This document shows positions 4,184 to 52,130 of a stretch of DNA of 64,000 nt, piece by piece; positions within the stretch are counted from its first letter, which is position 1, and every line of letters begins with the position of its first letter. A program made the position numbers and the translations under genes. The DNA is from Stegostoma tigrinum (lineage: Eukaryota): assembly GCF_030684315.1 (NCBI RefSeq), contig NC_081374.1:11830837-11894836 (forward strand), in the 5' to 3' direction. Under the pieces are notes generated by a model, which worked only from the letters and a program-made list of their open reading frames with translations, had not been told where the DNA came from and ran no database searches.

Positions 4184-4495
4184 CTAAATTCCAATATCAG
4201 CATAAACTACCGTTTCAGATCCCTGAGCAGGAATGAGTCGTGGGGCTTTCTTATTCCCCTTTAGTGGCTGGTTTGGTAAATTGAGGTCACTGTAGATGAC
4301 ACTGTTTGAGTTGTCAACTGTGTGCCTTGCCAGCCCACCTCTCACTGATGAAGATTTCTTTTGAAATTCCAATGCTGAATACATGATTTCATCATTTTTC
4401 AGATTGTCCCTTCTCTCTCTCTGTCTGTTTGCTGTGTTCGTTTGAATGTGGTTTATGTTTGCGTATACCATGTTCTTTTCCACTGATGCCAATTC
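4184..4495 (-). CDS. Gene A last exon, cytoplasmic tail with MVYANI, IMYSAL, VIYSDL, VVYADI
   Basis: Polypyrimidine-tag acceptor, phase 0, ORF to TAG; ITIM consensus (I/V/L/S)xYxx(L/V/I). Confidence 0.9.
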   Translation of the reverse strand, partial: ELASVEKNMVYANINHIQTNTANRQRERRDNLKNDEIMYSALEFQKKSSSVRGGLARHTVDNSNSVIYSDLNLPNQPLKGNKKAPRLIPAQGSETVVYADIGI

Positions 4496-7400
4496 CTAAA
4501 ATTGAAAAAAAAAACGTATTTTTGATTCACTTCAATCATGATTTGTGCTTTTACAAAGAGAAAGTGATTTCATGATTATTACTAATCTATATACAGTGTC
4601 AGAAGATAATAAAAATTATTTACAGTGCAAAATAGACAATTCAAACCTGTACTGTAGTAATTCTCCTACTGAGCCTCCTCCTCCCATTTTCATCCAATCT
4701 CATCAACAAATGGTATTCATTTCACACTCATGTGCTTATCCAGCTGCCCTTCTACATGGAATTATTCTATTTGCCTCATGGACCCCTCATGGCAATAGGT
4801 TCCACATTTTGACACTTTTCAGATAACAAGCTTTCTCCTGAATTCTCTGCTTCTTTCCAATGGAAGAGTTGAGTCAAGTTGTATTGTTTTATTTAAGAGA
4901 TAACTTAATAAACATGTAAAGAAGACTGGAGTTGGACGTTGATGAAGAGGAGTGGGAGAAGTCTTGCGTGGAGCATAAGAGCAACAGCTGGACTGAATTA
5001 CTAATTTCTGTGCTGTAAATCCCTTTTCTGCAACTTTCTAACCCGTATTCAGCAAGTTAATATTTATTATCCTTACCAGGTCATCATTAAAAGTCTTATC
5101 TCTTTGTTGATGCATGATGCAGAATATACCTGAAATATTAAAATACAATCATTCAAGCAAATTTAACAGGAATGTTTAATGTTTAAAATCTTTAAGCTGA
5201 ACATGTATTGCAGTGTGCATAAATATGTACTGGACTACATTCATCACCATTGCACCCATGATTCCCAACATGAGGGTGAGGGCTGTAAGGAGTCTTGGGA
5301 AGTTGTACTTGGGGCCACGTGCAGTAAGTCTGGGGTCAGCTGAATAGTTACTCAGAAGTTAGACCATGTTTTTATTCATCTCACTTTCACTGAATAACAA
5401 TTTTACTTAATTTCATTGGATACCTCTGAAATAAATGGATGGTCCCAAGTGTTGAGGAATTGTCTAGTGGGGAGGTGATGGCCTAGTGGTATGGCCACTG
5501 GACTGTTAACCTAGAGACCCACATAATATTCTGGGGTCCCAGGTTCTAATCCTGCCATGGCAGATGTGGAATTTGAATTCCCTAAATATCTGGAATTAAG
5601 AAGCTAATAATGACCATGACTCGATTGTCAGGAAAAACCCATCTAATTAACTCATGTCCTCTCGGGAATGAAACTGCTATCCTTTCCTGGTCTGGCCGAC
5701 ATGTGACTTCAGACCCACAGCAATGTGATTGACTCTTAACTGCCCTCTGGGCAATTAGGGATGGGCAATAAATGCTGTCTAGCCAGTGATGCCCTCATCC
5801 CGTGAATGAATAAAAATAAAAATTCAATTTTCCGGGGAATTTCTTCAGTATCTGCTACAATGGGGAATCTTCAGAGTCTCCACATGCTGCTCCTGACTGT
5901 ACTGGAATGTCAGCTGTCTAGCCATCAGAAGATCTAATTCTGATACACTATTTATATCCAATTGCAAGCTATTGGGATACAATGAAATGATTGAAGAGAA
6001 ATCAAAACTCACCCTTGTCCATTTGCCTCAGGTACAAAATTAGAGACACAGCAAAAACAACCAGAATGGCCCCCAGCACACCGAGTACAATGTAAATCAG
6101 ACTGTGATAGAGAGAATAGAAAAGTGTTTGTTCACAATTGATTCTTGGCCATTTGACGCAAAAAAATAAATTAAGAAAGATTTTCATCACCTCACGACAT
6201 CCAAAAGTACTGCAGGGAATGTAATCGTTATATTAAATGTTGCAATGGCAAACATGGTATTCAATTTGCTCACAACATGCTCCCAAAACAATAATTAGAT
6301 GTATGAAGATGTAATTTGGAATTGGTAAAGGGAACACATTGCCCAGGTCTCCACGGAGAATGGCCCTGCTCTTCTATGAATTTCGCCAAGAGATCTGCCA
6401 CATTCCCCTGAGAGGGGCAGCTGGGGCCTGGATTGATCACAGAGGGAAGGCAGTGCCACCACATTGTGGCACTCTCTCAGTACTGCTCTGGAGGCTCAGC
6501 ATTGATAACGTGCCCAAGTCTCTGAAGGAGAAGTGACCTCACAACCGTTGGTGTAGAAGGTAAATGTACCACCACTGAACCTTTTTAAAAATGTGGTAAA
6601 TTTCACTGAGTAAAAATGGAATAAAAGTGCACCAGCTAGCCACTGAAAATCGGCAACAACAGCTTCAAGAATGGATATTAGATTCAGATGATCTTCATTT
6701 ACATACATTTACGCTAGTGACATATAGATCATAGAATCACAGAATTTCTAGTGTTGAAACAGGCTATTCAGCCCATCAAGTCCCACAAACCGTCCAAAGA
6801 GCATCTCACCCAGATGCAATCCCCTTACCCTCTTTCCCATGGCTCATCCAAGTAGCCTACAAATCCCTGGACCCAATGGTCAGTTTGGCAAGGCCAATCC
6901 ACCGAACCTGCACATCTTTGGTCTGTGGGATTAAAACCAGAGCACACAGAGGAAAGCCACACAGACACGGGGAAAATATGGAAACTGCACACACACAATT
7001 ACCCGAGTGTGGAATTGAACCCAGGTCCCTGGCGCTGTGACTTACCAGGACACTGACAAATTATGGCCTAAAATAAAATTTGTAGACTTACAATGCTTTT
7101 TGTACCACAGAATATTATCTGGTTAAAAACAAATGGACTAAACATGCTCGAGACCGGAGTGAAAATCAGAAGTTATGAGAAAAATATGATCAGACAGGTT
7201 TGTTTAATTTCGGACGTGGTCTAGAATTGTGAAGAATTCTGCACTGATCTACTTCTGCACAAATGTGGACTGAATCACTGTGCGTTTCCGATATTCTCTG
7301 TTTGTCACTGGCGCTTATTTGACATTTTCTCTTCATCACCTTTGTAACTTCAAAGAATTATTTACTCTGTTTATATCACACTCACAGTTCCTGCTGCTTA

Positions 7401-10400
7401 TTTCCAACAGCTCTGGTGGATAAGTTGCTGCGAAAGGCTAACGCTGAAAGCTCCCTGTCACTGTGCAGATATATCACTTCAAATATTCCTTTTCACTAGC
7501 AGGAATGAAACTACCCTGAAATGTCACTCCAGAACACACAGCAGCAAGGTAGGTTTGGCAAGCACAGTGAATCACACTCCATGTGGTTTAATTGTGAAGT
7601 AATGAAGAAGAGCAATGCAGCCTGAAGGTCAGCAAAATAGAAACAATGTTCTCCAATTGTACTTTTCAAAAACAATTGGACCTTCAATGTGAAACTAACA
7701 CAGCAGCCTGATATAAACCCAGCACCATTTTCATTTCCAAAATAACAAATGACTTTCACTCGTTTGGCCAATGTTGTTAAACAACATTATTAATCTCGCA
7801 CAAGAATTCAAAACAAAGAATATCATACCTTTCAGAGTGTTTATCTTCTGAGGTTTGCTTTTGACTGAGAGAAGAACTTGTATTTGTATTTTGGGAATGT
7901 GTAGTAGTCAGTGATATTGTTGGAGAAATGTTACAAATATATCTTTGTTCTGTTGAAACAAGGAAATGATATTCAGATACACCTCATTTTCACTTGTAAT
8001 TATCTAAGAGGACATAATGAACAAATGGAGGTTCATTACTTATATAAAAGCCTGTGTGAAACATTATTTCCCCTTCTCTGATCACAGTAACACCTACAAG
8101 TGACCTCGTTCTACTGATAATTTTATAGAGTCATTGAGTCATACAGTGCAGGAACAGACCCTTCAGTTCAACAAGACCATGCTGACTCAGTTTTTCAAAT
8201 TAAACTCGTCCCACTAGTCTGCATTAGGCCCTTATCCCTTCAAACCTCTTCTATTCATCTACAAATTCAAATATCTTTAAATGTTGTAACTATGCCTTCA
8301 TTAACAATGTCCCCATCCACACATGAAGTAACCACTTTGTGAATAATTGCCCCTTTGGTCCCTTTTAAATCTTTTTTCTCTCACTTTAAAAATATTCCCT
8401 CTCATTTGAACTCTCCCACCCTCGGAAAAGACCATTGCTGTTCACCTTATCTACGCCCCTCATGATTGCATAAGCCTTTATAATTTTACAGCTCAACCTC
8501 CTAAGCTCCAAGGGAAAAAGTCCCAGCCTATCCAGGCCTTCCTTATAACACAAACCCACAATCCTGGCAACATCCTGGTAAATCTCTTCTGAAGCCTCTT
8601 CAGCACAATAATAAAGTTTCTGCTCTGTCTCCTGCTGTCAAGCCAATTTCGTATCCAATTGGCAAGATCACCCTCAATCCTATGTGATCTAACTTTACAA
8701 ATTTGGCTACCTTGAGGAGCCTTGTGACTGAAGTCTATGTCGACAAAGCCTACTGCTCTGTCCTCATCAATCTTTTTTGTTATATCCTCAAAAAGCTCAA
8801 AACAAGTTTGTAAGGCACAACTTTCCGCACACAAAGCCACGCTGATTAACCCTAAACAGTCCTCCACTCTCCAATTGCTTATGAATCCTATCTCTCAGAA
8901 TCTCCTCCAATAACTTATCCAACACTCATGTCAGGCTCACAGGCCTGTAGTCCCCAGGCTTCTCATCACAGTCTTGCTGAAATAAAGGCACAATATTAGC
9001 CAGCCTCCAGTCCGCAGGCACCTCAACCGTGACTGTGGATGATGCAAATATCTTTGCTCAGAGTCCCACAATTTCATCTCTAACATCCCACAATGTCCCA
9101 GGATATGTTTGATCAGATCCCAGTGATTTTCTTATCTCTGTGTTTTTTAAGACCTTCAGCACTTCCTCTTCTGTCACGTGGACTGTTATTTAGAGATAAT
9201 GGGAACTGCAGATGCTGGAGAATCCAAGATAATAAAGTGTGAAGCTCGATGAACACAGCAGGCCCAGCAGCATCTCAGGAGCACAAAAGCTGATGTTTAG
9301 GGCATAGACGCTTCATCAGAGAGGGGAATGGGGTGAGGGTTCTGGAATAAATAGGGAGAGAGGGGGAGGCGGACCGAAGATGGAGAGAAAAGAAGATAGG
9401 TGGAGAGGAGAGTATAGGTGGGGAGGTAGGGAGGGGATAGGTCAGTCCAGGGAAGATGGACAGGTCAAGGAGGTGGGATGAGGTTAGTGGGTAGGAAATG
9501 GAGGTGCGGCTTGAGGTGGGAGGAAGGGATGGGTAAGAGGAAGAACAGGTTAGGGAAGCAGAGACAGGCTGGGCTGGTTTTGGGATGCAGTGGGTGGAGG
9601 GGAAGAGCTGGGCTGGTTGTGTGATGCAGTGGGGGGAGGGGATGAACTGGGCTGGTTTTGGGATGCGGTGGGGGAAGGGGAGATTTTGAAGCTGGTGAAG
9701 TCCACATTGATACCATTGGGCTGCAGGGTTCCCAAGTGGAATATGAGTTGCAGTTCCTGCAACCTTCGGGTGGCATCATTGTGGCACTGCAGGAGGCCCA
9801 TGATGGACATGTCATCTAAAGAATGGGAGGGGGCGTTGAAATGGTTTGCGACTGGGAGGTGTAGTTGTTCCCTGGACTGACCTATCCCCTCCCTACCTCC
9901 CCATCTATACTCTCCTCTCCACCTATCTTCTTTTCTCTCCATCTTCGGTCCCCCTCCCCCTCTCCCTATTTATTCCAGAACCCTCACCCCATCCCCCTCT
10001 CTGATGAATGGTCTAGGCCCGAAACGTCAGCTTTTGTGCTCCTGAGATGCTGCTTGGCCTGCTGTGTTCATCCAGCTTCACACTTTATTATCTTGGACTG
10101 TTATTTATATCGCTGACATCCCCAGCATCTGTGTTTTTATCCACAGTAAAAACTGATGTGAAAGTTTGGTTTAGTATCTCTCCCACGTTCAGTGGTTCCA
10201 CCCACACAATTTTTTTACTATCTTTTCCAAATCTGAGATTTGATGTCTTTATATCTGGGTTCTGTTAAGGGCTTTGGGCTGGAAACGACAACACAGATAT
10301 CTCACTTTATAAAACCATGAGTTTCAAATGAAGCTGTTGCTTATTGATGTTGGCTGCGGTCAATTCCACCCTCTTGCGGTCAATTTTCCACGCTTTCAGG

Positions 10401-13400
10401 AATAATATGAAACCCCAGCCACAGACACATAACCTGCCAGTGATTTCCCATTGGCTGATCTGTGACAATCCATGAGACAGCCAAATGAGGTTCCACATCT
10501 CCATGGAGTTCACAGACAACATGGCTTGGGAGGGTTGCATTGTAACAACTACATTGGTAATTTTTTATTGTTTATTCTTTGTTGACCAGCTTTTGCTGCC
10601 CGTGCTGAATTATCTCTGTCTGATTGGCTCTATAGGCCTTTGAAGAGGGCATCTAAGAATCAAGCACATTGCCGGAGTCACATGTAGACTAGAGCTGGGA
10701 AAGGCTGCATGTTTCCTCCCCGAAAGGACATTAACGATCCAAATAGTGCCTTACAGGATCTTAGGAGACACTAAAATACCTCACATTCGATGAAGTGCTT
10801 AGTTGAAGGAAGCAAACAGTTGTAATGCAGCAAATATGTAGAAGTTAATTTGCATGCAGCGAACAAAATTGAAGTAATTCTGACAAAAATCTGACTTTTT
10901 TTATCTACATTGATTGAGGAATGAATGCTTGCTTTTAAGCAGGAAAACCTCCATTCTGCAAATAGTTTACAAATGATGCCATACCCAAAGGGTGAACACG
11001 TTCTCAGTTTATTACCTCATTGACACTGTCTCAGCTGCAAGAGCACAGCATTCCCTCTCTCTGCTGGGCAGTGATATCCAGCTGCATTTTAACCCCAAAG
11101 GGGAACTTGAACACACAGCATGTTTGTGATAAATGTTAGAGAGCAGCCACCTAAGCCGCTGCTGATAGTTACAAATACAGTTTATGTGTATCATCGCTAC
11201 TTGATGCTGAGCTGCTCCTTCTCTGACAGCTCAAACACGAGAGTATATCAGGAAATGCCTGCAGTCAATACTTTCATATATTTCATTTGTACAACTCACC
11301 TCCAATCCATATCCAACATCTGTCCAAAATCTGGACAGAACTGTCATGCACTGAGTTTGATAATTCCATCTGGTAGGAACATTTAAATTGTTCATCAATC
11401 TAAAACTATTTTAATTTTTGTGGATTATTGGAAATTGTACAATGTTTATCCATGCTGTGGGGAATATTTTATATACCTGCTCATTTTTGAAGTACAATGC
11501 TAACAGTTGGTTTTGTTCAGACTGGTAATGAAACAAATGGTGTGAGTTTTATCAATTGCCGTCTTACTGAGTGAGATAAAACACAGACAAGATAACAAAG
11601 TGTGAAGCTGAATGAACACAGCAGGCAAGGAGTGTGCTCCTGAGATGCTGCTTGGCCTGCTGTGTTCATCCAGCTTCACACTCTGTTATCTTGGATTTTC
11701 CAGCATCTGCAGTTCCCATTATCTCTGGTTTCAACAGACATTCAGTAAAAAATAAATCATCTTGTTTGCTTCACACTTACTGATGCTGTCGATGAGTATT
11801 ATATACCTGCTGCTCTTCTCTGCTAAATTGTTGACTGACACATGAACAATTTCACTGGATTTTGTTCCCTGAGTATTTGAGGCTGTGCAGTAATACTGAT
11901 GTTGCTGTGTGAAGGATTGACAACATAGATCCAGTTTATTGGTGTCAGAGATCTTTGAATCTTGAGATGGAGTCTTCTCAGACCACGTGTAGTGAATGGG
12001 GAGGGATCCACGGGCAGACTCACAGGAGATTGTCACTGAGCCCCCAAAACATGAGGAATTTGGTTGTGACAAAAATCGAAGTTCAGGAGCAGAGACATCT
12101 TCTGTGGGAAAGAAACAATTGTTGAGGAATTGACTGCCATCGAAAAATCAAATATCCTCCATCACTTTGTTATCTTGTTTCCTGGATAAAGCTTTGATCA
12201 GACATATCAGCAGAATTAAAAATTGAAATAATATCAGTGAGACATATGTACCTTCTGAGATGTGCAGCTGTACATAAAACATTGGGTCAAGTCCTGGAGC
12301 CTCAATCCCACAGCTGTACCATCCTGCATCTCCCCATTGAAGGTTCTTCATTGTAACAAGAAATATTCCATGTGCTTTGTTATCAGTGATTGATATTCTC
12401 CCATTTGCCCAGTTTGTTGCTGCTATAACATTACACTGACGAGACCATCCGTGACACCAATATTTAATGTGTGACTGGTACCGCTGTGCTTCGTAGCGGC
12501 AATGTATTGTGATCTCTCTTCCCAAAATTCCTGTCATGGATCTCTTTGCCCATAAAGCATCTGAAACTGAGGAGAAAATATTTCAGAGATTTGGAAATTT
12601 CTAAAGAAGTGCTTAACATTGCAGTCTATCTGGTTTATGATGAAGATAATAATTAATATAAACCCTTATCAAAATGTCAGGGTGTTCCACATTCACAGGG
12701 GATAATTTAAACAGTCGTACCCATTGCGCCAAGCTTAGAGGCAGCCTTGAAATTGGGTTTGTGCTGAATGATGTTGGCTCTAAGTCCACTGTGTGTGACA
12801 TCATTGCAGTGTAACTCCTGAAGAGCAACCTGAGTGACAGGCCTGGATTGGAGTCAGCTGGGGATTAGTGTGAAGGAGGCTACAGGGGCTGGAGGGTCCT
12901 TGTTCTGACCGGAGAAGGAGGGTTTCATCCAGGGAGGAGAGGGGAGTGTGTAGAATCATGGTGTGTTCAGGGGCTGAATTGCCAGGTTTTGAAAGGGCAG
13001 GTAGAATAAGTGACTCAGGAAGATTATGCGACCCCTCAAGGAGTTAAAGGAGGGATTTGAAGTTCAGCAAGGGACAGTTCACAAATGTGAAGCTAGATCA
13101 CAGATGTCACAGTGGCTCAGTGGTTTGCACTGATGCTTCATGGCACCAGGGACCCTGTTCCTTTTCCAATCTTGAGTGACCGTGTGTGAAGTTTGCATGT
13201 TCTTCCTGTGCCTGCATGGGTTTCCATTGGATGCTGCTGTTTCTGCCCACAGTTCAAAGCTGTGCAAATTCAGTGGATTGGCCATGCTAATTTGCCCATA
13301 ATGTTCAGGGATGAGTAGGTTAGATGCATTAACCTTGGGTAATGCAGGGCTACAGGGATAGGGGAGCGGAATGGGACTGGGATGCTGCTCAGACTGTTGT

Positions 13401-14935
13401 GTAGTTGTTTGACCGAATGGCAAGTTTCTGCACTGTGGGAATTCTGTGATCTATGGGCAATGTGCAGAAACCTGAGGGCAGTAAAGGCAGAATTATTTGT
13501 AATCAAACATTGTTGTCACTGTAAGGAGAGTAAAATAACAGAAGTAATCTACTGATTGTTCTGGAGAGACACTTCATCAGAAAATGTTTAGATTGCTGCC
13601 ACATTGTGTCCTGGTGTGGAAAAGGAGCAGCCTGTTTATGTCTGGGTAGATTTTACCTCAAGAGATGTGTGATTGTGAGGGAAACAATTCTCAACTGAAA
13701 TTATAGATAGGATTTTAAAATCCTATGAAGTGGTTGAGATGAAAGGAGAAAGGGAGAAAATGCATGAACAATTAAAGCTGATGGATGTCACAAATTAGAG
13801 TTCTTATTGTAAAAGGAAGTCTTGAAGGGGATTGCTGAACACAGAGGCACGCTTCGGTTTTTTGTCTGTAAAGTATTCTACATGAAATTGGTGAGCTTGA
13901 GCCACAACCTGTTGCAGAAAGTTTTCCTGTAACATTTCACTGAGCTGCAGCCCTGGGAACTTTAATATTTTGCATGTTCATCTTTGCTTCATTATAAACA
14001 AAGGGGAAGTGCCAATATTGAACTATAATTTTATTGCAGTGCTACAATTACAATTGTTATAATTGATGGACATGAAAACAAACTTCGTTCAAGTTAAAGA
14101 CAGAAAGGAAGAAGGCTTCTTAAGGTAAGAGAAATATAAACAAACCATCTTCCTTTCTGACAAAACCTTGCAAAACAATATTGAATGAATTATTCTACAA
14201 CAGCAAAAGAAATGAAAGCAAACCCAAGATATTTTGATTAGTAGCTAACTATCACACCAGTTTTCAGTGTATGTTGAACATTAAAAACTTTGGACTAGTT
14301 CAAATTATTATGCTATTTGAATCACTTTAAAAAACATTATACTGTCCTTTTTTAAGTTTATTCATAATTAATGATGCAGCAGTAAAGTATTTGGTATTGT
14401 CTTGTGATATTATTATATTTTCAGAAGAAGATATAACATTTCCTGATGCTGTTCATGTATTTTCACATTTTTTTTCATTTGAACCCCAGTCAAAGCACAT
14501 GGCACTTCTGTTTTCTGCAGTTTGTTCTTCCTGGAACAGTTCGTAGCATCAGACCAGTTTGTGTGATTTGAGGGGTATCACACTGCACTGGATAAAGCTG
14601 ACCTGGAATCTCATCCACTCTTGCTGCCTGCCATGAGCACATTGGAAGAATTTGCAGGCTGACGATGAACCTGTTCGGCTTTGTGAGAATGCACATTCCT
14701 TTGGAAAATGTGCTGGAGAATGACCCAAACTCTCAGCATTTATCAAAGCAATAAAGATGCGACCTGCTGTGTCAACATGCTGTTCCTTTGTGCGTTTATG
14801 TGTCTCCAAATATCTAAACATCTCTATACCGTATAAACCATGCGGTAGACTTTAATAAGTATTAATTATTGAAATAAACGTCTCAGATGGTCACTCACCA
14901 GGAATGGAACAAATGAGGAGAATCACAGTCCACAT
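4184..14935 (-). CDS. Gene A: intact CD300/pIgR/MDIR-like inhibitory Ig receptor (V + C2 + stalk + TM + ITIM tail), 415 aa; join(14899-14935,12252-12566,11781-12101,7829-7949,6013-6101,5077-5129,4184-4495)
   Basis: Seven exons, all with GT-AG borders and compatible phases (1,1,1,2,1,0). Total 1248 nt = 415 codons + stop, with no internal stop. Confidence 0.88.
5077..5129 (-). CDS. Gene A exon 6, short cytoplasmic exon (GIFCIMHQQRDKTFNDDL)
   Basis: tatttcag acceptor, gtaagg donor; phase 1-0 bridges TM and last exon. Confidence 0.75.
5468..5820 (+). mobile_element. tRNA-derived SINE (DeuSINE/SacSINE1-like) in gene A intron 5
   Basis: A-box-like tggcctagtggt, B-box-like ggttctaatcc, 3' tail catcccgtgaatgaataaaa shared with LINE end at ~37515-37540. 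Confidence 0.6.
6013..6101 (-). CDS. Gene A exon 5, uncharged transmembrane helix
   Basis: SLIYIVLGVLGAILVVFAVSLILYLRQMDK; 89 nt, phase 2-1, same size as the gene B TM exon. Confidence 0.9.
6728..7042 (-). mobile_element. HE1-like shark SINE
   Basis: Conserved cacatctttgg..gaggaaa..gaattgaacccaggtccctggcgctgtga; further copies at 13.1, 33.4, 55.7 and 58.3/62.3 kb. Confidence 0.7.
7829..7949 (-). CDS. Gene A exon 4, Cys + Ser/Thr-rich stalk (KQRYICNISPTISLTTTHSQNTNTSSSLSQKQTSEDKHSE)
   Basis: tttcaacag acceptor, AG|gtatga donor, open frame, phase 1-2; paralogous exon at 37614-37692. Confidence 0.8.
8125..9190 (-). mobile_element. Degenerate CR1 LINE fragments
   Basis: RT remnants (DFSHK.., LQKRFTRMLPG). 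Confidence 0.7.
9193..10094. mobile_element. Palindromic Penelope insertion in gene A intron 3
   Basis: Inverted pLTR arms; 13-bp TSD ggactgttattta; empty site in the paralogous region near 23690. Confidence 0.88.
11588..11727. mobile_element. Mini Penelope hairpin, ~55 nt from the C2 exon donor
   Basis: Inverted termini plus ~34-nt tail; absent from paralogous sites at 25.1 and 25.6 kb. Confidence 0.85.
11781..12101 (-). CDS. Gene A exon 3, C2-set (FcR-like/FCRL/PECAM-type) Ig domain
   Basis: VTISCESARGSLPIHYTW..YYCTASNTQGTKSSEIVHVSV; cccacag acceptor, A|gtaagt donor, 321 nt. Confidence 0.9.
12252..12566 (-). CDS. Gene A exon 2, CD300-type Ig V domain
   Basis: ITIHCRY..KYWCHGWSRQC..RISITDN..DAGWYSCG with the extra C-C' Cys pair typical of CD300/pIgR/TREM; 315 nt, phase 1-1. 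Confidence 0.93.
13100..13452 (+). mobile_element. HE1-like SINE
   Basis: gtggctcagtggtt..tgtgtgaagtttgcatgttct..ggattggccatgctaa. Confidence 0.7.
14899..14935 (-). CDS. Gene A exon 1, signal peptide MWTVILLICSIP
   Basis: ATG, hydrophobic 37-nt exon, G|gtgagt phase-1 donor; paralogous exons at 48.7 and 52.1 kb. Confidence 0.85.
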
Positions 14936-17682: not shown

Positions 17683-18827
17683 ATGGATGGAGAACTTAGA
17701 GCACTCGGAATTATTCTTGTAAAGGCCATGACACCCACGTAATGTTTTCTCATGTACGTTGTGACCGAAACAGAACAAATCACCAGGACACTGAAGAGCA
17801 CCCAGCGTATCACATTCCAGACACTGAAACTGGGCTAACTCGACAAAAAGGTGGTCATTGTCAGTATTCCCATTAGCATTGATTCCAAGTAATAATATAT
17901 CATTTTGCATAAGAGTTTTCAATAATTTCCAATTTCAGGCTATAATTTATTAGAATGGAAATGGTGGCTGATTTTATACAATGCCATCCTGTTACCTTCC
18001 TGACAATGTTGCTGTTCATGAAATTGGAAATCTATAATAGAAAGTCACAATTTTCTGTTTGCCATCTCACTGATTCAAGTGCAGTTTTCAGCATTAAAGT
18101 TAAATGCTTTATCATTGATCTCTGCTCATGGTGGTGTAGTTTTCAAAGCAAAGAAATGGCAGTTTTTGAAAACTCGGGGTATTCTGCAGTAGCACTGACA
18201 GGGACATTACATTCTCTGTCAGCTTCTCTTCCTCAGATCTGTGGAGTTGCACCTTGTTCTCAAACTGAGATGGTGAAAGGCTATCTGTCTGGTTCCAGCT
18301 GGTTAAAACTTGCCTGTTAGAAAGTGCAAGGAGCACTGCGGGATGATGCTATTCTGAGTTTCTTACTCACTGACTAGGCCCTCGCTGTTGTAGTATTGTA
18401 CCAGAAATATCCGACTATTTAACATATAATGATCAAGTATCACGTTGTGATGTGCAATACAGGACAAGCTACTGAACCTCGTTTCAATTCACCTTTGTCT
18501 ATTGTTAATGTCATTCAGAAATTAAACAGTCGTTCAGTTTCCCCACTTATCTCTCTGAGCTGGGCAGCTTTACTCTGCCACAATAAACGAAGATTGTCCT
18601 GTAAACAGTGGATAAATGTTTGAAACATAAAGCAGACTTGTTTCCTACAAATGATTTTGTATTTTGTCGAGTTAGCCCAGTTTCAGTGTCTGGAATGTGA
18701 TACGCTGGGTGCTCTTCAGTGTCCTGGTGATTTGTTCTGTTTCGGTCACAACGTACATGAGAAAACATTACGTGGGTGTCATGGCCTTTACAAGAATAAT
18801 TCTGAGTGCTCTAAGTTCTCCATCCAT
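17683..18827. repeat. 166-bp inverted repeat (17683-17848 / 18662-18827), 813-bp spacer
   Basis: Arms are reverse complements with one mismatch seen. Confidence 0.92.
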
Positions 18828-18838
18828 CCAATGACTAC

Positions 18839-18934
18839 CTTTTACCAACAGACTTAGATCATAAAGATGTTTGTGTTATTGTTGGTCTCTTATTGTTGTT
18901 GCTGCTGAAGAGACTTCACAGATATAGTCACTTC
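18839..18934 (-). pseudogene. Pseudo-exon, stalk (SDYICEVSSAATTIRDQQ*)
   Basis: YIC motif, GGTAAAAG|gt end like gene B stalk; 96 nt length breaks phase; in-frame TAA. Confidence 0.65.
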
Positions 18935-19116
18935 CTATTGAGCGATCAGATAATATTCAGCTTCATCTGAGTCTCACTTGCAGAGAACCAAGAAAGCACT
19001 CCTCACAAATGGAACCTCAGGATTTTTCGTAAAGAATAGATTTTGTTGAATTCATTTGTTGACAACTCCTGCTTTCTGGAGAGATGTCGTAGAGACATAA
19101 CTTCAACATAATTTAA

Positions 19117-19522: not shown

Positions 19523-19722
19523 TGCATCTTGCATCTTGCATCTTGCATCTTGCATCTATTTTCAAAAATGAATCATTGCTTTGTTCAAAATTGTTAAAAA
19601 ATGAAAGTAACATAATGTGATGAGGTGCAGTTAATTGTGTGACAAAAGAAGCTTAACAAATGAACAGTTTGAATAGCCATGAAATGCGTTCATCAACTCC
19701 AGGGTCTGTAAAAGAAACTTAC

Positions 19723-39900: not shown

Positions 39901-42900
39901 AGTGCACTCATGGAGAGGGAATGAGAGACTGAGAGAGAAAACTCTAGGCAGGGAGGACTGAAATATAGAAAGTTGTCTCCCTTTCTAATAGATTTTCTCT
40001 TTTTGGATACTGCTGTGGGGAGATGTGTTCTCAGGGGAATGCAGAGACAGCCAAATCCATGGCACCAGGAGTGGCTCAGCACCTGACTGTGGGGAGAGAG
40101 GGATTTAGACTCTGGAGGCATTGGGTACAATTCTATGAAGATGGAATCTGTACAAGCTGGACGGGTCACAAACCAGCAGACCCAGGACCAATGGCCTCTG
40201 ACAGGCTTTTGCAAGTTCCTTGATGAGAGGTTAAAGTGGCAGGGCACCATGACCATGAATCATAATCTCATGTCACCTATGGGCACATCAGATTTTACTT
40301 ACTATGTGTGTTTTTTGAAAGGGAATTGATCAAGCCAAAATTATCACAGATGTGAATTCAGTGGACATTTGGAGAGAGAGATTAGAATGTTGTACCTAGT
40401 GTTTGTTAAGGAAACTTCAACAGGTTGACCTAAAGGGAGAAATAAGCAATAAAGTGAAATGTGTTTGCCTTAGAAGTTATCTCAGACTATGATCATGACT
40501 CACAGAAATGATTTTTTTAAGGCTACCACTTTTGTTTATACATATAGATAGGAGTCAAAAGAGAACTTCACTCCCAATGTCTCTCCCTTCCATTATTAAT
40601 ATTTCTTGTGTTCAGTAAGTAACAAACTCACCTCTTGTTAGCTCAAGAAAGCTCCTTTAAATGGACTCCTTTGACAACATAAACACATTTGATCTGGCAA
40701 AAAGGGATCCACAAGGGAAAGGAGAAGTAGTAGTAAATTAATGCAGATATGAATGAAAAAAAAGCTGAGGTTCTTGAAGCTCCAAGTAATGCTTACCATG
40801 GCTCCCAATTTGTGCCAAATAACTGCAGTTGCTCTCTGATCTATGGATGACTGACACATTAACCATTTCACTGTATTTTTCTCCCTGAGTATTAGATGCT
40901 GTGCAGTAATATTGATGATGTTGCAGTTTGAATAATTGACAATGTAGATCCACTTTATTGTTCTCAGAAATCATTGAATCTTCAGAAGTGGTCTTTTCAT
41001 ACCATGTGTATCGAATGGGAAGGGATCCCTGGGCAGACTCACAGGAGATACAAACTGAGTGTTCAAAACATGAGATATTTGATGGTGATAAAAACCGAAT
41101 GACAGGAAGAGAAACGGGATCTGTGGGGAAAGAAGCAAATTATCAGACACTGACTGAGAATTCAAAAGCTAAATATTCTGCAAATTTTAGCATTTCTATC
41201 TTTCATCCAAGTCTTTTCATGTTGGAATCTCTACAGTTGCATTCCAGTTTCAGCTAAGTGTTGCATTAATTGAGTGATTAAGACACTTCCCCTCCCATGG
41301 GACTCCCTCACACACAGATTGTGATGTTGCAAAATACTTTCAGAATCTGTTTGAGGTGATCTCTTGAAATGCCAGACCATATAGGAAGATGGGTAAGGTG
41401 CTGGAACATGGGGCCATCATATTTAGATGCTTGTTGACCAGCATGGACATGATGGGACAAATGTCCTCTTCGCATGCGTAACACTATATTGCTCTAAAAT
41501 AGATGTTGGCAAGACTGGCTGGCTTCCAGAAATTCTGAGAACTGCTGTGTTGATCCCAAAACTTGTGACATTCTGCAGGCTACTGTGACCATATTGGTTT
41601 TGAAGATCAGCATGTTGAAGATCTGACTAGAGGATTTTGGATATACTGTAATGTAATGTAAAAGAGCTATTTAATGACCTTGTTGTAAAGAACTTTTAGG
41701 GATGAATGATCAGAATATGACTGAATTATACATTATGTCTGGGAATAAGGTATTTCCATCTGAAGCAAGATGGAATTGGGAAAATTATGAAGGAGAGAGG
41801 CACAAATTGGTTGAGCTGGATTGGGAAAATACATTGAAGGGCAGGTCAGTATATTACTCATGGAGAGTCTTTAAAGTCTATTTCATGGCTTGCAGCAACA
41901 ACATATTTTACTCAAAAACGATATAAATTAACCACAGCTGATAAAAGGATGTGAAGCACTTCCGGGATCAGAACACAAGGCTCATAAAGTGGCCAAAATT
42001 GATAGAAATCTGAGGACTGTTTTTTTTTAGTCATACAAGAAAGCAGGACCTTAAAACTGAAGAGACCAGAATAGAATACAAATGCAACCTAACAAAAAAA
42101 ATAAAATTTTAAGCTTCTTTAGGAATATATAAATAAATAACTTGACAATGACAAACATGGATCTGTGAAAAGCAGCATTGGGGGAATGTATATGAGGAAA
42201 TGGAGAAATAGCAATGGAGCTAAATGAGTAATTTGTGATGATTTTTGCTGAGGAAAATGCAAGAAAATAACTTAAAATAGAGATCCAAGTGTGAAGGGAG
42301 AATGAGGAATTGAAGCAAGTTAGCACTGAGAACATTGTGCTGGAGAAATTAATGGAAGGTGATAAATCCCCAAGACCTGACAGGCTGCACTCTAAAATGT
42401 CAACAAACTTGTCAATAGAGATAGATGGTGCATCAGTAATTATCGTCCAAATCTCCAGATAATCTGGAATTATTTCTGCAGAGGAGAAGCTTGCAAATGT
42501 CACCCCACTACTTATGGAAGGGGAAAGGAGGAAAATAGGGAACTATTGATCCATCAACCTTACTTCAGCAGGAAGGGAAATAGTAGACTTTATCATAAAA
42601 CATGTGACAAACAGTAATTTGAATAAAAAACAGTTTGATGGTGTACAGTCAGCATGGATTTGTGAATGGACAATTGTGTTTTACCAACTTGTTGGAGCTT
42701 CATCAGGTTATTACCATAAACTTGACAAAGGGAAGTTAATGGATGGAGTGCATTTGGATTTTGAGAAGGCTTTTAAAGATGATCCCAAAGGAGTTTGGTT
42801 TGCAAAGTTGAAGGACATGGTATCAGAAGTAATACAATGAAATGGATTGATGATTGGTGAGTAGTCAGAAAATAGAAATTATGAATAAATTGAGCATTCT

Positions 42901-45900
42901 CATACTCGCAGGTTGTGACTGATGGGGTACTATAAGGATCTGTATTTGAGTCCCAGCTTTTTTCAATATATATCAATGATTTTGACATGGAGACTAAATT
43001 TAACATTTCCTAACTTTCAGACAATGCAAACAAATGAGAATTATGTGTTATGAGGAAGGTGCTGAACATCTCCAGGAGAATTTCGACAGGTTTAATGATT
43101 GGGCAAGAGTTCGGTCAATGGAATATAATGTGGATAAATGTGAGGCTACCACTTTGTGGGAAGAACAAATGAGCAGAATAGTTTGTAAATGTTGAGATGT
43201 TGGAAAATGTAGATGTGCAAAAAGTTTTGGGTGTCCTTGTCAGTAAGATACTGAGGCAATCATGCAGGTGCATTAAGATGTTAGGAAGGCTAATGGAATA
43301 TTAACCTTTATTACAAGAGAATTTCAGTGCAGGAATTGAGAAACCTTGCTTTGCTTGTTGTGTTGGATCATGGATATACTGCACCTGGAGTATTTTCTGC
43401 AGTTTCAATAAACTTATCTCAGGAAAGTTATTATTACCATAGAAGAGTACATCAATGATTTACCAGACATTTTTTGGAAATTTAACGTGGAAGTTGATAA
43501 ATTTTTGATTATTAATTGTGTGAAGAGTTGAGAGGATAATTTGGTTTAACCAAATTGCAGTGTTTGATCAGCCATGATTCTATTAAATAATGAGGCATGT
43601 TCAATAAGTCGAATGGCCTCCTCCTGGTCCTATGTTTTTACAAATAAGCATTGCTGTAGCACCTTGGGATATTGGAGAATTCATGGTTTCTCTCAGGCAA
43701 AGCACCAATTGGTCACTTCATTAGAGATTAATAAAGGCAATCGATCAAAACTATACCGTAAAATACTTCGAGCTTCACAGCAGTTAATTCATCTCTAAGC
43801 CATCTACCAATACCACAGCTGTACCATCCTGCATCTTCCATGCGAAGACCCTCCATGGTAACAACAAATACTCCTTGTGTCTTGTTATCTTTGATTGACA
43901 TTCTTCCTTGCTGTCCACCAGGATCAGTCGTTCTCACCAAATATGAGCAGTGCATGGTCCTGCCTTGACACCAGTATTTCATGTTGTCCTTGAGCCTTGT
44001 GTTGTAGTTACAATCTATTGTGATTGATCTTCCCACAATTCCTGTTACTTTCTCCTTTGACCACACAGCTGGTAATGAAACGGGGGAGGTGATGTTTCAG
44101 AAATTGAATTAGAATTAGGTTCTTATTACAAATAAATACATCCTAATAAGTTTTACCCCTCTACACAGAGAAACTCTGCGCTGTATCTGTTACAAACTTA
44201 TGACCATATAAATTAGGAATTACAATCTGGAACAGTAAAGCAGCAGTGGGACATCCAGCCCTTGAAGCTATTTGCCATGCAGAAGTTCATGGTCGATCTG
44301 TTTGTGTTCCGAAATTCACATTCCCCATTTATACTGATAACCTTTGATTTTTGTCTCACAAATATCTACCACCCTGCACCACCATCCATGGCAGACTGTT
44401 CCCATTTCTTCCCATCTCTGTCTTTAAAAGATGACGCCTAGTTGTAAAATAGTGTCCCCTGAGGGACTTACCAGGAAATGGTTTTGAGATCTAACCTCCC
44501 CAATGTCCTGCAACGCTGAAGCACAATGTCCTCACTGTTATATTCAGTTCCTCTTATAATATAGGATAGCATTGTAATAGCTTTCTTCATCACATGTTGA
44601 TACTTGCATTCTAACTTCATGTGACTCATGCACTAGAACACCTCGATCCCTCTGCACCTCAGATTTCTGCATGTGTATAAACTTAAATAATACTCAGCTG
44701 CTCCAGGAGTTTGACTTGGTGACAGGAAAGGAACAATGATGTAGTTCCATGCCAGGACGCTATGTGATATGAACATCAGTTTTGGAGGTCAGAAATCAAA
44801 ACAGTCCCATGAAATTGACATCAGTTTTGGATTATTAATTTCAAAATAGTTATATATTCCTTTTGGATACTTCTGTGAAAGTTTGTCTTTAAAATAAAAT
44901 GAAAGTAGGAATCCCTGTGAAACTCTGACCTTACACTGGCCTTAGTTAGATAGCAAGTGCATTCAAACCCTAAGTTGTATGTCATTAGAAAAGTGTTTAT
45001 CCTGTGCTGCTTCATGACAGGTTTATAAACATTGACGATAATTAGCTGGCGACTAAAACAAAGCTGCTGGAAAAGCCCTGCAGGTCTGGCAGAATCTATG
45101 AAAGAAAGAAACAGAGTTAAAGTTTCAGGGTCCAGAAGGTTAACTCAGCTTTTTTTCTTTCATAGATGCTGCCAGGCCTGCTGAGCTTTTCCAGCAACTT
45201 TGTTTTTGTTCCTGATTTACAGCATCCACAGTTCCTTTGATAATTCACTTGCTTTCAGTTCAGATTAACGTTGATTTTAGTTTGCAAAACTCAGACTGAA
45301 AAGTCTTTGCTCAGTTCTGTGATGTCATTGCTGGGTTTAGATGCAAGTATATTTTCTCTCCTGGAACGTTATTTTTCAGAGCAGTCGCTAAACAATTTAC
45401 CTCAGCAGAATGGTAGATTGTAAACATTCCAAATTGCGAGAGACAGGCTAGAAAATTAGAAAAAAATTTAAGCTGTCAGCTTTGTGAATATTCATGTAAA
45501 ACTGTCAAACTGTTCACAGGAAAGAAAGAAGGAGTAATCATTGAAGAAAGATGAAAGAACATCAATATTTTATGCAAAGGGATAATTTCTCTGAATTTGA
45601 ATAATTGTAAATTGATATTGTTGGGAAACAGTTGGAAACTTTGTTTTGTTGTGTGTTTTAAAATTCTTCTAAACTGTTTACCTGTATAGATTGCCGTGTC
45701 TTTTAATTTCGTTCATGCAGTGTTTAGTCGTTGAAAGGTAGTCGCAGAAGGTTCAAAAAAACGAAATTAAAAAACACGGCAATCTATACAGGTAAACAGT
45801 TTAGAAGAATTTTAAAACACACAACAAAACAAAGTTTCCAACTGTTTCCCAACAATATCAATTTACAATTATTCAAATTCAGAGAAATTATCCCTTTGCA

Positions 45901-48736
45901 TAAAACATTGATGTTCTTTCATCTTTCTTCAATGATTACTCCTTCTTTCTTTCCTGTGAACAGTTTGACAGTTTTACATGAATATTCACAAAGCTGACAG
46001 CTTAAATTTTTTTCTAATTTTCTAGCCTGTCTCTCGCAGTTTGGAATCCGATTTCTTTCTGAGATTTGACTTTGCTGATAGTTTCAAAAGGTGAGCTCAG
46101 GGCACCAATGTAGTATTAACTCTGCAGTCTCACTCTGTAGAGGACCAATGCTCAATTTGTTTATCTTTTCCTTTCAAAATAGTTTTGGAAACTTTTGCTA
46201 TCTGTTTGTACCAGCTTGGTCTCATGTTTATTTATTTGTCCTGATTAATCTTTTTGTCATTCTTGATGTTCTTGGTATTCTGACAGGTCATCTGACTTGC
46301 CATTCAAGTTAATGTAACAATATTCTTTTTCCTTAAGGTCGATGCTTTGCTTAACTTCTTCAGTTAGCCATGGAACGTAGGTCTTGGAATTTTACAATTC
46401 CACTTGGAATTTTTTTGTAGTAGACATCTCCTTAAAATGAGTATTCTGAAAAATCCCTTACAGTGTCTACCACAGCTTCGTTACTGATTTACTTGCTAAC
46501 CTTATATCCCAGTTCACGTCAATTAGCTCAGCTATCATGTCTCCAAAGTTGCCCATATCTAAGTGTAAAATAACAACCTTAGAATAACACTTCTCCTTTT
46601 CAAACTGGATATAAAATCAGTCACTGCTATTCAGAGTTGCTGTAATTCTGAGGTCATTAATTAATCCTGTCACATTATACAATATCAAATACCTTCTCTC
46701 TGGTTATCACTGTAAGAAGCTAACTCAAAGATTAACCAAAAACCCCTCAACAAACAGATTAAAATTTCTCATGAGATAACTAAGTGTAGAGCTGCATGAA
46801 CACAGCAGGCCAAGCAGCATCTTAGGAGCACACTCCTAAGATGCTGCTTGGCCTGCTGTGTTCATCCAGCTCTACACTTTGTTACCTTGGATTCTCCAGC
46901 ATCTGCAGTTCCCATTATCCCTGATTAAAATTTCTCAAGGTTATTACAATCCCCTAAGTCACAAGGACTCAAAAATTTCTCCGTAAATATACCCTATAAC
47001 ATGATTACTGTTCAGGGATTTGTAAATCATTCCCATAAGTGACCTCTTCACCCAAATTATTCCATATCGCCAACCAGACTGATGCTACACCTTGATCTCC
47101 TGAACCAAAGTTATATCTACCTATTGCACCAATTGTTAAACAGTAGGAAATACATCACCTTAGGTCTGAAGCTAAAAGTGAGTCTAGATACTGCAAGAGA
47201 TTGGATAGATTTGATTTCTTTTATTGGTACAAAGTCAATTGAGAAGGGTCTTGACTGGGACATGATAATATTATGTGGGAATATTTCAGGAAGACAGGAA
47301 GAAACATTTCCCCTTGATAGAGGATTCATTGACCAGGGGCATAGTAATGTTGGGGTTGGAGGTTTAGAGGGGATAGGAGGAATTTTCTTTATTCGCTAGT
47401 GCAGAATTGAGGGACAGAATGTTCTTTTTTCTGTGCTGTGGATGTGTATGCCTCCATTATTCACTGATCAGTTCTATATTCACTGGGATTTAATGGAATG
47501 AGTGGTGATCCAGTTAGAAGATATAAAGAGCTCGAGGGACTTGTCAGGGCCAATGTTGGAAATATATTTCCCTGGCCCAGAGATTCTACAACACAGGATC
47601 ACATTCTCTAAAATAGGAATCAGGCGTTTAGAACAAGATGAGGAGAAAATTTATCACAAAAGTTGTGAATCTTTCAAGCTCTCTACCCAAGAGAGCTACA
47701 GGCAATCAAATATTCAGCATACGGGTGAATGAACCTTTTTGCATGATCAATACGGTGCTTGTGCATGCAAGTGGAGTTGTGGGGGGGTCAGCCATCACAT
47801 TGTTCAATGATTTAGCAAACTTGAAGCATCAGATAGCTGGCTCCTGCTATTTCTGAGGTGCTTCTATGAAAGGTATCCTTAAAAATTTGACTGAAACTAA
47901 AAACATACTATTAATTTGGAGTGGATGCAAAAACACCATTTACCACTTTGGAGCTGAGTAATGTTGTGAAAATGATTCCTTACTGATGGAGCACTGTGTA
48001 TAAAATGTGTGTCATTGAGGTGCAGTGACATTGACAGCCTCGATATTTCAACAGATGCACTTAAAGAACAGAAACAATTGCAAACTCAGGGCACGTTCTC
48101 CTAGATTTACCATTGCAGACTTGAGTTTCTACTGGACAACAAATTGCATGCAGAAGTTCACTTTTAATGGACTGAATATGTTACTTTTGTAATTCTTTTA
48201 CATTATTCATAACACTTGCAAAACAAAAATAGTAGTGTATATTTGATATTCACCACGAATAATGTGCTTAAATATATATTGGTAAATATTTTTGAAATAC
48301 TACTATACAGATAAAATAAGTATAGGACTTCACCCAAACATTTCTCCTGTGTATTCTGTGCCTGTATGTGTCTCTGGGTATTTAAACATCACGACTGAGT
48401 AGCAGGTACATGAAATATAACCCAAAACAGACTTTGCCAAATATCCAAGATAACAAAGTGTGGAGCTGGATGAACACAGCAGGCCAAGCAGCATCTCAGG
48501 AGCACAAAAGCTGACATTTCGTGCCGAGACCCTTCAATCAGAGATGAAGGTCTAGGCCTAAAACGTCAGCTTTTGTGCACTTGATTTGCTGCTTGGCCTG
48601 CTGTGTTCATCCAGCTCCACACTTTGTTATCTTGGATTCTCCAGCAGCTGCAGTTCCCATTATCACTTTGCCAAATATCCAGCTTGTGCTGTCACTCACT
48701 GAGCACTGAATAAATGAATAGAATCATGCTGCACAT
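30675..48736 (-). CDS. Gene B: CD300/MDIR-like receptor V-C2-V-stalk-TM-tail, 498 aa if all in-frame exons are used; join(48700-48736,43757-44068,40797-41120,38986-39297,37614-37692,35113-35201,32451-32497,30675-30971)
   Basis: GT-AG exons with compatible phases; 1497 nt open. First-exon choice and use of the V2 and 40632-40693 exons are uncertain. Confidence 0.72.
31220..31945 (+). mobile_element. Degenerate CR1 3' fragment in last intron of gene B
   Basis: LQFYKTLVRSCWEYSEQIW. Confidence 0.75.
32451..32497 (-). CDS. Gene B short cytoplasmic exon GKDGEGNRTDNAFENQ
   Basis: ttttcag acceptor, gtaagg donor, phase 1-0; similar to gene A exon 6. Confidence 0.72.
33355..33692 (-). mobile_element. 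HE1-like SINE
   Basis: Similarity to other copies. Confidence 0.7.
34500..34955 (+). mobile_element. Penelope pLTR fragment
   Basis: Pyrimidine-rich pLTR, ctgatgaa..gaaac, standard tail. Confidence 0.85.
35113..35201 (-). CDS. Gene B transmembrane exon SPVYIVVAVLGTMLIVFAVLLLLYLKQVNK
   Basis: 89 nt, clear nucleotide paralog of 6013-6101. Confidence 0.88.
35850..36352 (-). mobile_element. CR1 3' fragment
   Basis: FEQRVVCLWNEL. Confidence 0.75.
37614..37692 (-). CDS. Gene B stalk exon GADYCCGISTVPVTTSSSKDESQLGI
   Basis: gtttcaacag acceptor identical to gene A stalk acceptor; 79 nt, phase 1-2. Confidence 0.78.
38341..38894. mobile_element. Compound Penelope insertion (hairpin + tandem pLTR) just after V2 exon
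   Basis: 16-bp TSD aggataatggaactgt (38325-38340, 38895-38910). Confidence 0.88.
38986..39297 (-). CDS. Gene B Ig V domain 2 (lacks CHGW-equivalent segment)
   Basis: ITIDCHY..VKFWSRQC..DAGWYSCG; 312 nt, phase 1-1. Confidence 0.82.
40632..40693 (-). other. Linker-like mini-exon with in-frame stop (DQMCLCCQRSPFKGAFLS*)
   Basis: ttttgccag acceptor and G|gtgagt donor 103 nt after the C2 exon; DQMCLC aligns with stalk KQRYIC / GADYCC. Confidence 0.5.
40797..41120 (-). CDS. Gene B C2-set Ig domain
   Basis: DPVSLPVIRFLSPSNISCFEHSVCISCESAQGSLPIRYTW..YYCTASNTQGEKYSEMVNVSV..NCSY; 324 nt open. Confidence 0.88.
41600..43630 (+). mobile_element. Old degenerate CR1
   Basis: HLDFEKAF and KSPRPD remnants. 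Confidence 0.7.
43757..44068 (-). CDS. Gene B Ig V domain 1 (CD300-type, WLRD FG loop)
   Basis: ITIDCNY..KYWCQGRTMHC..DAGWYSCGIGRWLRDE; 312 nt, phase 1-1. Confidence 0.9.
45052..45240. mobile_element. Palindromic mini-element of a third Penelope-related family
   Basis: gctggaaaagc..gcttttccagc arms plus tail; related pieces near 34050-34170 and 57525-57625. Confidence 0.6.
45426..46047. repeat. 288-bp near-perfect inverted repeat, 46-bp loop
   Basis: 45426-45713 vs 45760-46047, about 3 mismatches. Confidence 0.95.
46772..46922. mobile_element. Mini Penelope hairpin
   Basis: 15-bp TSD gattaaaatttctca. Confidence 0.88.
48448..48664. mobile_element. Mini Penelope hairpin 35 nt into gene B intron 1
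   Basis: 17-bp TSD actttgccaaatatcca; both hammerhead cores degenerate. Confidence 0.88.
48700..48736 (-). CDS. Gene B leader exon MCSMILFIYSVL
   Basis: 37 nt, A|gtgagt phase-1 donor; downstream intron (~48340-48390) resembles gene A intron 1 (~14775-14822). Confidence 0.7.
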
Positions 48737-50200: not shown

Positions 50201-50244
50201 ACTGAGGGGATTTTGTGAATTTCATGGTGAAAACTACAAAGTAA

Positions 50245-51337: not shown

Positions 51338-52090
51338 TAATACTCTTCCTGTAGGACCTGTTATAAAATTTAATTACCCGAACATGACTGGAAGAATTAA
51401 AGTATGCAGGATAGAGGGTGGTAAGAGTGACTGAAGAGTGCCTGGCAAATTTCTGATGAGTATTCTGAGCCAGTAGATTGTGCCAACGATATAAAGTGTA
51501 ACGGATATACGCTTCAGTGAGTGAGCAACAAGGTAGAATTAAAGCCTAATGTGGGGGTGTATGAGGTCATAGGGTTAGAAAACTGAGACATGTTTTCAAA
51601 AGGCATGAAGCTTGAAAATGTCAACGTTTCGTGAGACCTGGGTGTGTTTGTGCAGGGAAGATAACTGATGAGAATGCTGGTATAACAAGCAAAGAGGAAA
51701 GCAAATGGTCTGTTAATCTTTCTTGAAAGGGGATAGATAGCAAGAATAACAAAGTCTTACCATATTTGTACAGGGTTATGTCGATTCCATACTTGCAATA
51801 CAATGTACAAGTTTGAGCCTGTATTTTGTGGAGCTTAGAGAAATGAGAGCTGATCTCATTGAGGAGAAATACAAACCAACCACCTAGTTTTGCCACAGAG
51901 TCTCACAAAACAAGATTTAATAAACTGTATGAAAAAAATAAAAGAAATAGTTGCAAACCGAAGATTTTGTCCCTGTGTCACAAAATCTTCCTTTGTGCCT
52001 CCAATTATTTAAACATCTCCACTGTACAAACCAGAGAGTGGACTTAAACAAACAAGGATTATCTGAATATACATCTCGATGGTCACTCAC

Positions 52091-52130
52091 CTGGAATGGA
52101 ACAAATAAGAACAATCAAAGTCCACATCAT
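52091..52130 (-). other. Orphan or alternative leader exon (M)MWTLIVLICSIP
   Basis: Close paralog of gene A exon 1 with intact gtgagt donor; no V exon seen between it and the 48.7-kb leader. Confidence 0.75.

Follow-up and report, generated by a model that had tools for sequence, protein, structure and literature searches.

Zebra shark members of the MDIR receptor family and the gene cluster around them

A 64,000-nucleotide stretch of the zebra shark (Stegostoma tigrinum) genome (G000:C25:11830837-11894836, on contig NC_081374.1; hereafter the window, with positions counted from its first letter) carries on its minus strand two genes, A and B, which, judged from their sequences, are new zebra shark members of the MDIR family already known from skate. 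Both genes appear to be intact, and they likely encode inhibitory immune-cell receptors of a paired activating/inhibitory cluster; we put the probability of this reading at about 0.8. The family was reportedly described by Cannon and colleagues in 2006 as the modular domain immune-type receptors of the clearnose skate. Thus, the family itself is not new; genes A and B enlarge it, and the corrected gene map given here replaces a fused RefSeq model. In PMC3031540, MDIRs are presented as multigene activating/inhibitory receptors resembling CD300, TREM and pIgR.

Genes A and B as MDIR family members

Protein searches retrieved skate MDIR2 (P0140), MDIR3 (P0090) and MDIR5 (P0048 = ABC86800.1), and these three proteins were used for the comparison. 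Gene B was identical to MDIR2 at 174 of 431 positions (40%) from the leader to the last tyrosine (E 1e-98), the first 227 residues of gene A were 48% identical to the same protein, and the C2 domain was 66% identical to that of MDIR5. In the V tree (68 rows), 45 rows of V-C2 genes, from chimaera to ray, formed one clade at 97/97, which holds all three window V domains together with MDIR2, MDIR3 and MDIR5 (the 46th row labelled with the V-C2 genes was the V-only domain of a chimeric whale shark model). In both trees, the window genes were placed among carpet sharks, and the skate MDIRs among rays and skates (96/93 for V and 95/92 for C2); thus, the window genes are members of the family and not 1:1 orthologues of the skate MDIRs. 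An initial annotation of the window, made from the sequence alone, had taken the skate MDIRs as merely the nearest described family, which has to be corrected: they are the same family.

The C2 cysteine pattern is common to the window C2 domains and the MDIRs (gene B lacks one of the cysteines), and the number of modules varies. MDIR2 is V-C2 with an uncharged transmembrane (TM) segment, MDIR3 is V-V-C2-V-C2, and MDIR5 is V-C2-V-C2 with an Arg-bearing TM; up to nine V-C2 repeats occur in automated models of other relatives. The RefSeq model P0109 (Rhinoraja) joins C2-V-C2-Arg TM to a TRIM protein and is probably another fused prediction.

Six-frame scans gave, on the minus strand, three V, three C2, two uncharged TM and two tyrosine-rich last exons. 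The V-set domains of the window were detected with Pfam (E 1.6e-13, 2.3e-13 and 2.8e-8), and C2-type immunoglobulin (Ig) domains were likewise detected. A protein search with the gene B C2 retrieved a 100% match, the RefSeq protein XP_059509192 (939 aa, Stegostoma tigrinum), and mapping this model back supplied the small exons. In RefSeq, A and B appear only as this one fused 'uncharacterized' model with two TMs. The model passes over the gene A stop and continues into the gene B leader; from the exon sequences, the fusion looks like a prediction error. Gene A is leader-V-C2-V-stalk-TM-tail (499 aa, no internal stop) and gene B leader-V-C2-stalk-TM-tail (415 aa, stop-free frame ending at 4184). 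All 13 introns of the two genes are GT-AG and all 15 exons are open, which bears out the earlier proposal of two intact minus-strand genes. For the four motifs quoted in that proposal, the counts in the window are 2, 3, 2 and 2, against none in 20 shuffles. The exons are as follows (ITIM, immunoreceptor tyrosine-based inhibitory motif).

52091..52130, minus strand: gene A leader exon, phase 1 donor
43757..44068, minus strand: gene A V1 exon, CD300/pIgR-type V, four cysteines, phase 1-1
40797..41120, minus strand: gene A C2 exon, extra cysteines and C-terminal extension, phase 1-1
38986..39297, minus strand: gene A V2 exon, a 4-residue deletion takes out one extra cysteine
37614..37692, minus strand: gene A stalk exon, phase 1-2
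35113..35201, minus strand: gene A TM exon, uncharged, phase 2-1
32451..32497, minus strand: gene A first tail exon, phase 1-0
30675..30971, minus strand: gene A last exon, four tyrosines, one strict ITIM (IVYATI)
14899..14935, minus strand: gene B leader exon, own ATG
12252..12566, minus strand: gene B V exon, phase 1-1, probably homogenised not long ago with paralogues at a distance of some 200 kb
11781..12101, minus strand: gene B C2 exon, phase 1-1
7829..7949, minus strand: gene B stalk exon, phase 1-2
6013..6101, minus strand: gene B TM exon, uncharged, phase 2-1
5077..5129, minus strand: gene B first tail exon, phase 1-0
4184..4495, minus strand: gene B last exon, four tyrosines, three strict ITIMs (IMYSAL, VIYSDL, VVYADI)

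The layout of V, C2, uncharged TM and tail tyrosines ascribed to each gene was thus found in both, with a second V in gene A in addition. That the exons are interchangeable phase-1 modules is supported for V and C2 (phase 1-1, varied architectures and patchy identity among paralogues) but not for the stalk (1-2), TM (2-1) and first tail (1-0) exons. The second V of gene A lacks KYWC and has three cysteines, versus four in the first V of gene A and in the V of gene B. Its 4-residue deletion is also present in whale shark, bamboo shark and epaulette shark proteins (P0078, P0015, P0039 and P0040) and is therefore old, not fresh decay. Because bamboo and epaulette shark relatives are V-C2-V-C2, a second C2 was probably lost from gene A. 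In the gene A tail, three other tyrosines accompany the single strict ITIM. In the gene B C2, the extension cysteine is gone and a new cysteine stands beside the conserved middle one.

Intron 1 of gene A holds a further feature:

48700..48736, minus strand: second, diverged leader-like exon, frame open, GT donor present

The initial annotation had called it an orphan leader; the leader-like exon is real, but it lies inside gene A and, having a GT donor and a frame without stops, may serve this gene as an alternative first exon. A mirror copy is found at C25:11,900,427. The same intron contains a near-perfect inverted repeat (window 45426-46047; 288-nt arms, 99%, 46-nt loop), and a 35-nt minisatellite (52897-53707) lies about 0.8 kb upstream of the gene A leader. 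The regions upstream of genes A and B (51994-54757 and 14799-16167, respectively) are 74-84% alike in several blocks and are a candidate shared promoter region.

The cluster around the window

Profile searches covered 1.064 Mb around the window. The cluster spans about 600 kb (C25 11.7-12.3 Mb), and 13 full-length C2 exons and 12 family V exons, several of them broken, were found over C25 11.69-12.07 Mb. In the whole 1.064 Mb, there were 13 leaders and 7 uncharged-type and 13 Arg-type TM hits. The description as a birth-and-death immune receptor family therefore stands. The description as inhibitory probably applies to A and B with their uncharged TMs and tail tyrosines; the cluster as a whole is paired. 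Genes lie on the minus strand left of about 11.89 Mb and on the plus strand right of it, with mirrored blocks 90-97% identical. Nine V exons of V-only CD300-like genes extend the cluster rightward (C25:12098187-12282095, L041-L059); some of these genes have an Arg TM and others tyrosine tails, and in the V tree they are not part of the V-C2 clade.

Two genes of opposite type, one activating at 12.00 Mb and one inhibitory at 12.05 Mb, have an identical V exon (315 of 315 nt), with 45 of 81 identical in their TMs; the shared V sits in a 13-kb duplication (97.9%) that stops short of the TM. The two genes would make a ready activating/inhibitory test pair. Comparison of gene B with the 12.05 Mb gene gave synonymous differences of 2/65 in V, 13/71 in C2 and 0/68 in the last exon (Fisher p 0.005 and 0.0001), and the intron before V was 76% identical and the last intron 98%. 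From this patchy identity, we infer that exon-scale gene conversion has likely occurred across the inversion. The cluster would turn over by tandem and inverted duplication and as phase 1-1 V and C2 exons are gained and lost; conversion would likely keep the V domains of activating and inhibitory receptors similar. Tandem 12.3-kb units of about 99% identity (C25:11985434-12057248), two of which hold a leader without V or C2, are either a very recent duplication or an assembly artefact. A mirror pair of C2-stalk-Arg TM genes lies at C25:11742015-11751889 and 11906064-11908575; in the left copy, a leader and an open C2 were found and no V.

Between genes A and B lie a pseudogene, C, and relics:

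19718..20047, minus strand: pseudogene C C2 exon with three stops (20023, 19747 and 19738)
18842..18955, minus strand: pseudogene C stalk exon, contains a stop
17742..17831, minus strand: pseudogene C TM exon, activating-type, Arg in W-x-V-I-R-W as in skate MDIR5
18662..18833, plus strand: inverted 172-nt duplicate of the pseudogene C TM region, 98%
23709..25660, minus strand: relic of a duplicated gene, copies of the gene B C2-stalk intron, 75-94% alike

Pseudogene C had been recognised earlier, correctly as to its broken C2; no V was found for it in 20070-30600 (best E 0.45) and no tail exon was detected, and, because its TM carries Arg (the Arg-Trp pair is also in the MDIR5 TM), it is of the activating type. 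The intron relics of the initial annotation were recovered as the 23709-25660 segment, which also includes a scrap of a C2 exon end (25152-25204). Four public sequencing runs behaved as genomic DNA, with introns and repeats covered; two of them carry the pseudogene C stops and the inverted TM repeat and may come from the assembly's own animal. Reverse transcriptase copies of long interspersed nuclear element (LINE) type, typed by eye, occur at window 60214-62097 (plus), 20225-22967 (plus; directly upstream of the pseudogene C C2) and 50458-51294 (minus), one of the window's copies having a 627-aa open frame. A very abundant repeat (read depth in millions) with a GIY-YIG-like frame (Penelope-like, by eye) occurs at 800-3033, 9192-10132, 26050-27546, 34500-34950 and 38341-38933, and several copies form inverted pairs.

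Predicted function and competing readings

Genes A and B have a type I membrane layout with CD300-type V, extra-cysteine C2, uncharged TM and ITIM-consensus tyrosines, and in neighbouring genes such ectodomains are joined to an Arg-bearing TM and a short tail. The AlphaFold model was that of the bamboo shark orthologue of gene B (P0067, 40-row alignment), which stands in for the window proteins. The predicted local distance difference test (pLDDT) score was about 90 for V, about 85 for the C2 core and about 65 for two further strands, followed by one TM helix and a disordered tail. The two strands span the C2/stalk junction, with Cys214 opposite Cys229. The V domain superposed on CD300LF with Z 18.7 and a root-mean-square deviation (rmsd) of 1.4 Å over 104 residues, and on pIgR D1 with Z 15.8 and rmsd 3.0 Å; CD300LF ranked first, followed by pIgR and TREM2. 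A C2-only model (pLDDT 54) was not used, and fold searches with the two domains were filled by V matches and thus uninformative for C2.

CD300 receptors are known for lipid binding. By analogy with CD300, the outer V would bind the ligand; that this is a lipid, for example phosphatidylserine or phosphatidylethanolamine on dying cells or microbes, is in our view an even bet. Src kinases would then phosphorylate the tail, where SHP-1/SHP-2 could dock and damp activation, as at known ITIMs, and the Arg partners would signal through an FcR-gamma-type adaptor with an immunoreceptor tyrosine-based activation motif (ITAM). The C2 domain is probably a spacer, its extension folding as a disulphide-closed hairpin with the stalk. 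A WLRD tetrapeptide in the FG loop of gene A V1 (window 43790-43801), a putative lipid-binding motif of CD300a, is regarded as a likely chance occurrence: it is found in 1 of 314 V domains and is absent from the whale shark and bamboo shark orthologues.

The left flank of the cluster consists of a CCDC48-like gene and two G-alpha genes, one best matching G-alpha i3 (GNAI3-like), and the right flank of an AHCYL1-like gene and an AMP deaminase with AMPD2 as the best human match; GNAI3, AHCYL1 and AMPD2 are 1p13.3 genes in human. Matches to NHERF (EBP50_C) and Tweety (TTYH), together with the best C17orf99-like matches, were on C26/C27 and not on C25 (one weak C17orf99 match was on C1); NHERF1 and TTYH2 are 17q25 neighbours of human CD300. 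The MDIR cluster lies outside the mammalian CD300 neighbourhood, and the synteny with that locus proposed for checking in the initial annotation was not found. TMIGD3 (human 1p13.2) was considered as a possible relative; none of the 9 proteins retrieved with a V-only gene as query bore this name.

The strongest competing reading is that the receptors bind immunoglobulin (IgM, IgW or IgNAR), as the shark counterpart of pIgR/FCMR/FCAMR or FCRL, and mediate feedback inhibition in B or myeloid cells. IL10-, ATP5PB-, C1orf116/SARG- and PFKFB-like matches are indeed on C25 at 17.9-18.7 Mb (ATP5PB-like at 18.1 Mb), and IL10, C1orf116/SARG and PFKFB2 flank PIGR in human. The best solved match of the C2 domain was FCRL5 D4. 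In two genome-wide V searches (at least 19 matches each, 36 candidates scored, both lower bounds), 19 of 19 matches were at this locus; thus, within these lower-bound searches, no separate pIgR-like locus was seen. However, the PIGR-flank markers are 5.7-6.5 Mb from the cluster, whose immediate neighbours are the GNAI3-, AHCYL1- and AMPD2-like genes; the V fold is nearer to CD300LF than to pIgR D1; and, in the alignments, the window V domains lack the CDR1 (complementarity-determining region 1) sequence of pIgR D1, the segment that binds Ig. We therefore regard Ig binding as improbable.

Still less probable is a reading in which A and B are silent or in decay and mere chance has kept their frames open amid the fast turnover of the cluster. 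Many neighbours are broken, the gene B C2 cysteines are altered, and close V paralogues have similar proportions of nonsynonymous (pN) and synonymous (pS) differences (0.032 versus 0.031 for gene B and the 12.05 Mb gene). All 15 exons nevertheless are open with canonical splice sites, open orthologues exist in whale shark (95% for V1 and V2 and 92% for C2 of gene A) and bamboo sharks, and between subfamilies pN is below pS (about 0.33 versus 0.55 for V; about 0.2 versus 0.33 for C2). That A and B are one read-through gene, as in XP_059509192, is hardly credible: the automated model exists and similar fused models occur in other sharks, but the stop in the gene A last exon comes 9 nt past the splice point of the model, gene B starts with an ATG leader of its own, GT is missing from the frame boundary of the model junction at 15269, and the two-TM chain would place the second V-C2 inside the cell.

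Several points weigh against the interpretation of A and B as intact, probably inhibitory MDIR members of a paired cluster. The cysteine missing from the gene B C2 is invariant in 13 of 13 aligned relatives, and its loss may signal early decay. Gene A has only one strict ITIM. The splicing of both genes is predicted from their splice signals and open frames and from the automated RefSeq model, in which the two are wrongly joined. As for the cluster, the V identity between the 12.00 and 12.05 Mb genes may be a mere recent 13-kb duplication, and the near-identical 12-kb repeat array there is as given in the assembly. Finally, the MDIR family is defined here by the deposited MDIR2, MDIR3 and MDIR5 sequences and by the account in PMC3031540.

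Origin of the V-C2 module and comparison with known systems

Against solved structures, the C2 profile matched FCRL5 D4 best (43.7 bits), then D5 (35.9) and D3 (28.0); other families scored 24.5 or less. A scan of 1.84 billion representatives with the C2 gave 911 hits, of which the best 150 were considered. Among these, the best single domains outside the family were those of a lungfish Siglec-like protein (42.8 bits) and FCRL5 (42.7), that is, a tie. Over the whole module, scores of 67-76 bits were reached by eight proteins (seven from named genera and one unnamed record). The named bony-vertebrate V-C2 proteins are:

Pleurodeles XP_069094812
Rhinatrema XP_029428703
Latimeria XP_014347698
Polyodon XP_041091868
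Arapaima
Umbra
Dallia

They keep six cysteines in the C2 region, and 5 of 7 (Pleurodeles, Latimeria, Polyodon, Arapaima and Umbra) have an Arg-Trp TM as in pseudogene C. In the Ig-core C2 tree, they joined the shark MDIRs at 98/96, and three complete V domains joined the shark V clade at 89/96 (not starred). Since proteins made of V plus the six-cysteine C2 are present in amphibians, coelacanth and ray-finned fish, the hybrid predates the split of sharks and bony vertebrates; on these sequence matches, the V-C2 receptor is very probably ancient and common to both. No amniote V-C2 member was seen among 20 named representatives, within the best 150 of the 911 hits. We found no published account of the sharing of this design by amphibians, coelacanth and ray-finned fish, key papers being outside the reach of our search. 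An origin from the CTX family (CAR, VSIG4) was rejected, as the C2 scored 20-22 bits there, well below FCRL5, and the V is CD300-type.

The initial annotation had seen a link between the CD300 and FcR-like lineages. FCRL5 as the best solved match speaks for it; the tie with the Siglec-like domain does not, and, since the C2 tree consists of three groups and is unrooted, FCRL cannot be named sister. C25 carries both the pIgR-flank and the human 1p13 markers. A fuller scenario would have an ancestral jawed-vertebrate V-C2 receptor that lives on, unnamed, with an activating Arg TM in amphibians, in coelacanth and in several ray-finned fish, and that gave rise by expansion to the paired MDIR clusters of cartilaginous fish. 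Its C2 would be truly sister to FCRL, and the receptor, at the one CD300/pIgR-type locus seen in the shark, would be a relic of the ancestor from which both CD300/pIgR-type and FcR-like receptors descend; we consider this combination unlikely, if conceivable. In any case, a V-C2 design shared with bony vertebrates and located outside the CD300 neighbourhood bears on the origin of CD300, pIgR and FcR-like receptors.

Among known systems, the mammalian CD300 family (CD300LF, CD300A and CD300C) resembles the window genes in its four-cysteine V (31-35% identity, rmsd 1.2-2.1 Å) and has the same paired on/off design. Its members have one V and no C2, whereas the genes here are V-C2 and V-C2-V, and the CD300-locus markers are on C26/C27 rather than C25. 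pIgR, FCAMR and FCMR belong to the same V-domain superfamily, and C25 also carries their flanking markers; their ectodomains are all V, pIgR has no C2, the D1 CDR1 sequence is absent from the window V domains, and the cluster is at least 5.7 Mb from the IL10-SARG interval. FCRL5/FCRL4 share ITIM tails, and FCRL5 D4 is the best solved match of the C2 core; the FCRL ectodomain is C2 only, unlike A and B with their V domains, has neither the extra cysteines nor the hairpin extension, forms a separate clade, and is tied with the lungfish Siglec-like domain. The bony-vertebrate proteins have the same V plus six-cysteine C2 module at about 30% identity, with an Arg-Trp TM in 5 of 7 and an uncharged TM with ITIM tail in 0 of 7. 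For the skate MDIRs, the V-C2-V layout of gene A with its three-cysteine second V was not seen among the three retrieved; they nevertheless share V and C2 modules in varying number, the same cysteine pattern, and either an uncharged TM with a tyrosine tail or an Arg TM, and gene B has the layout of MDIR2 itself.

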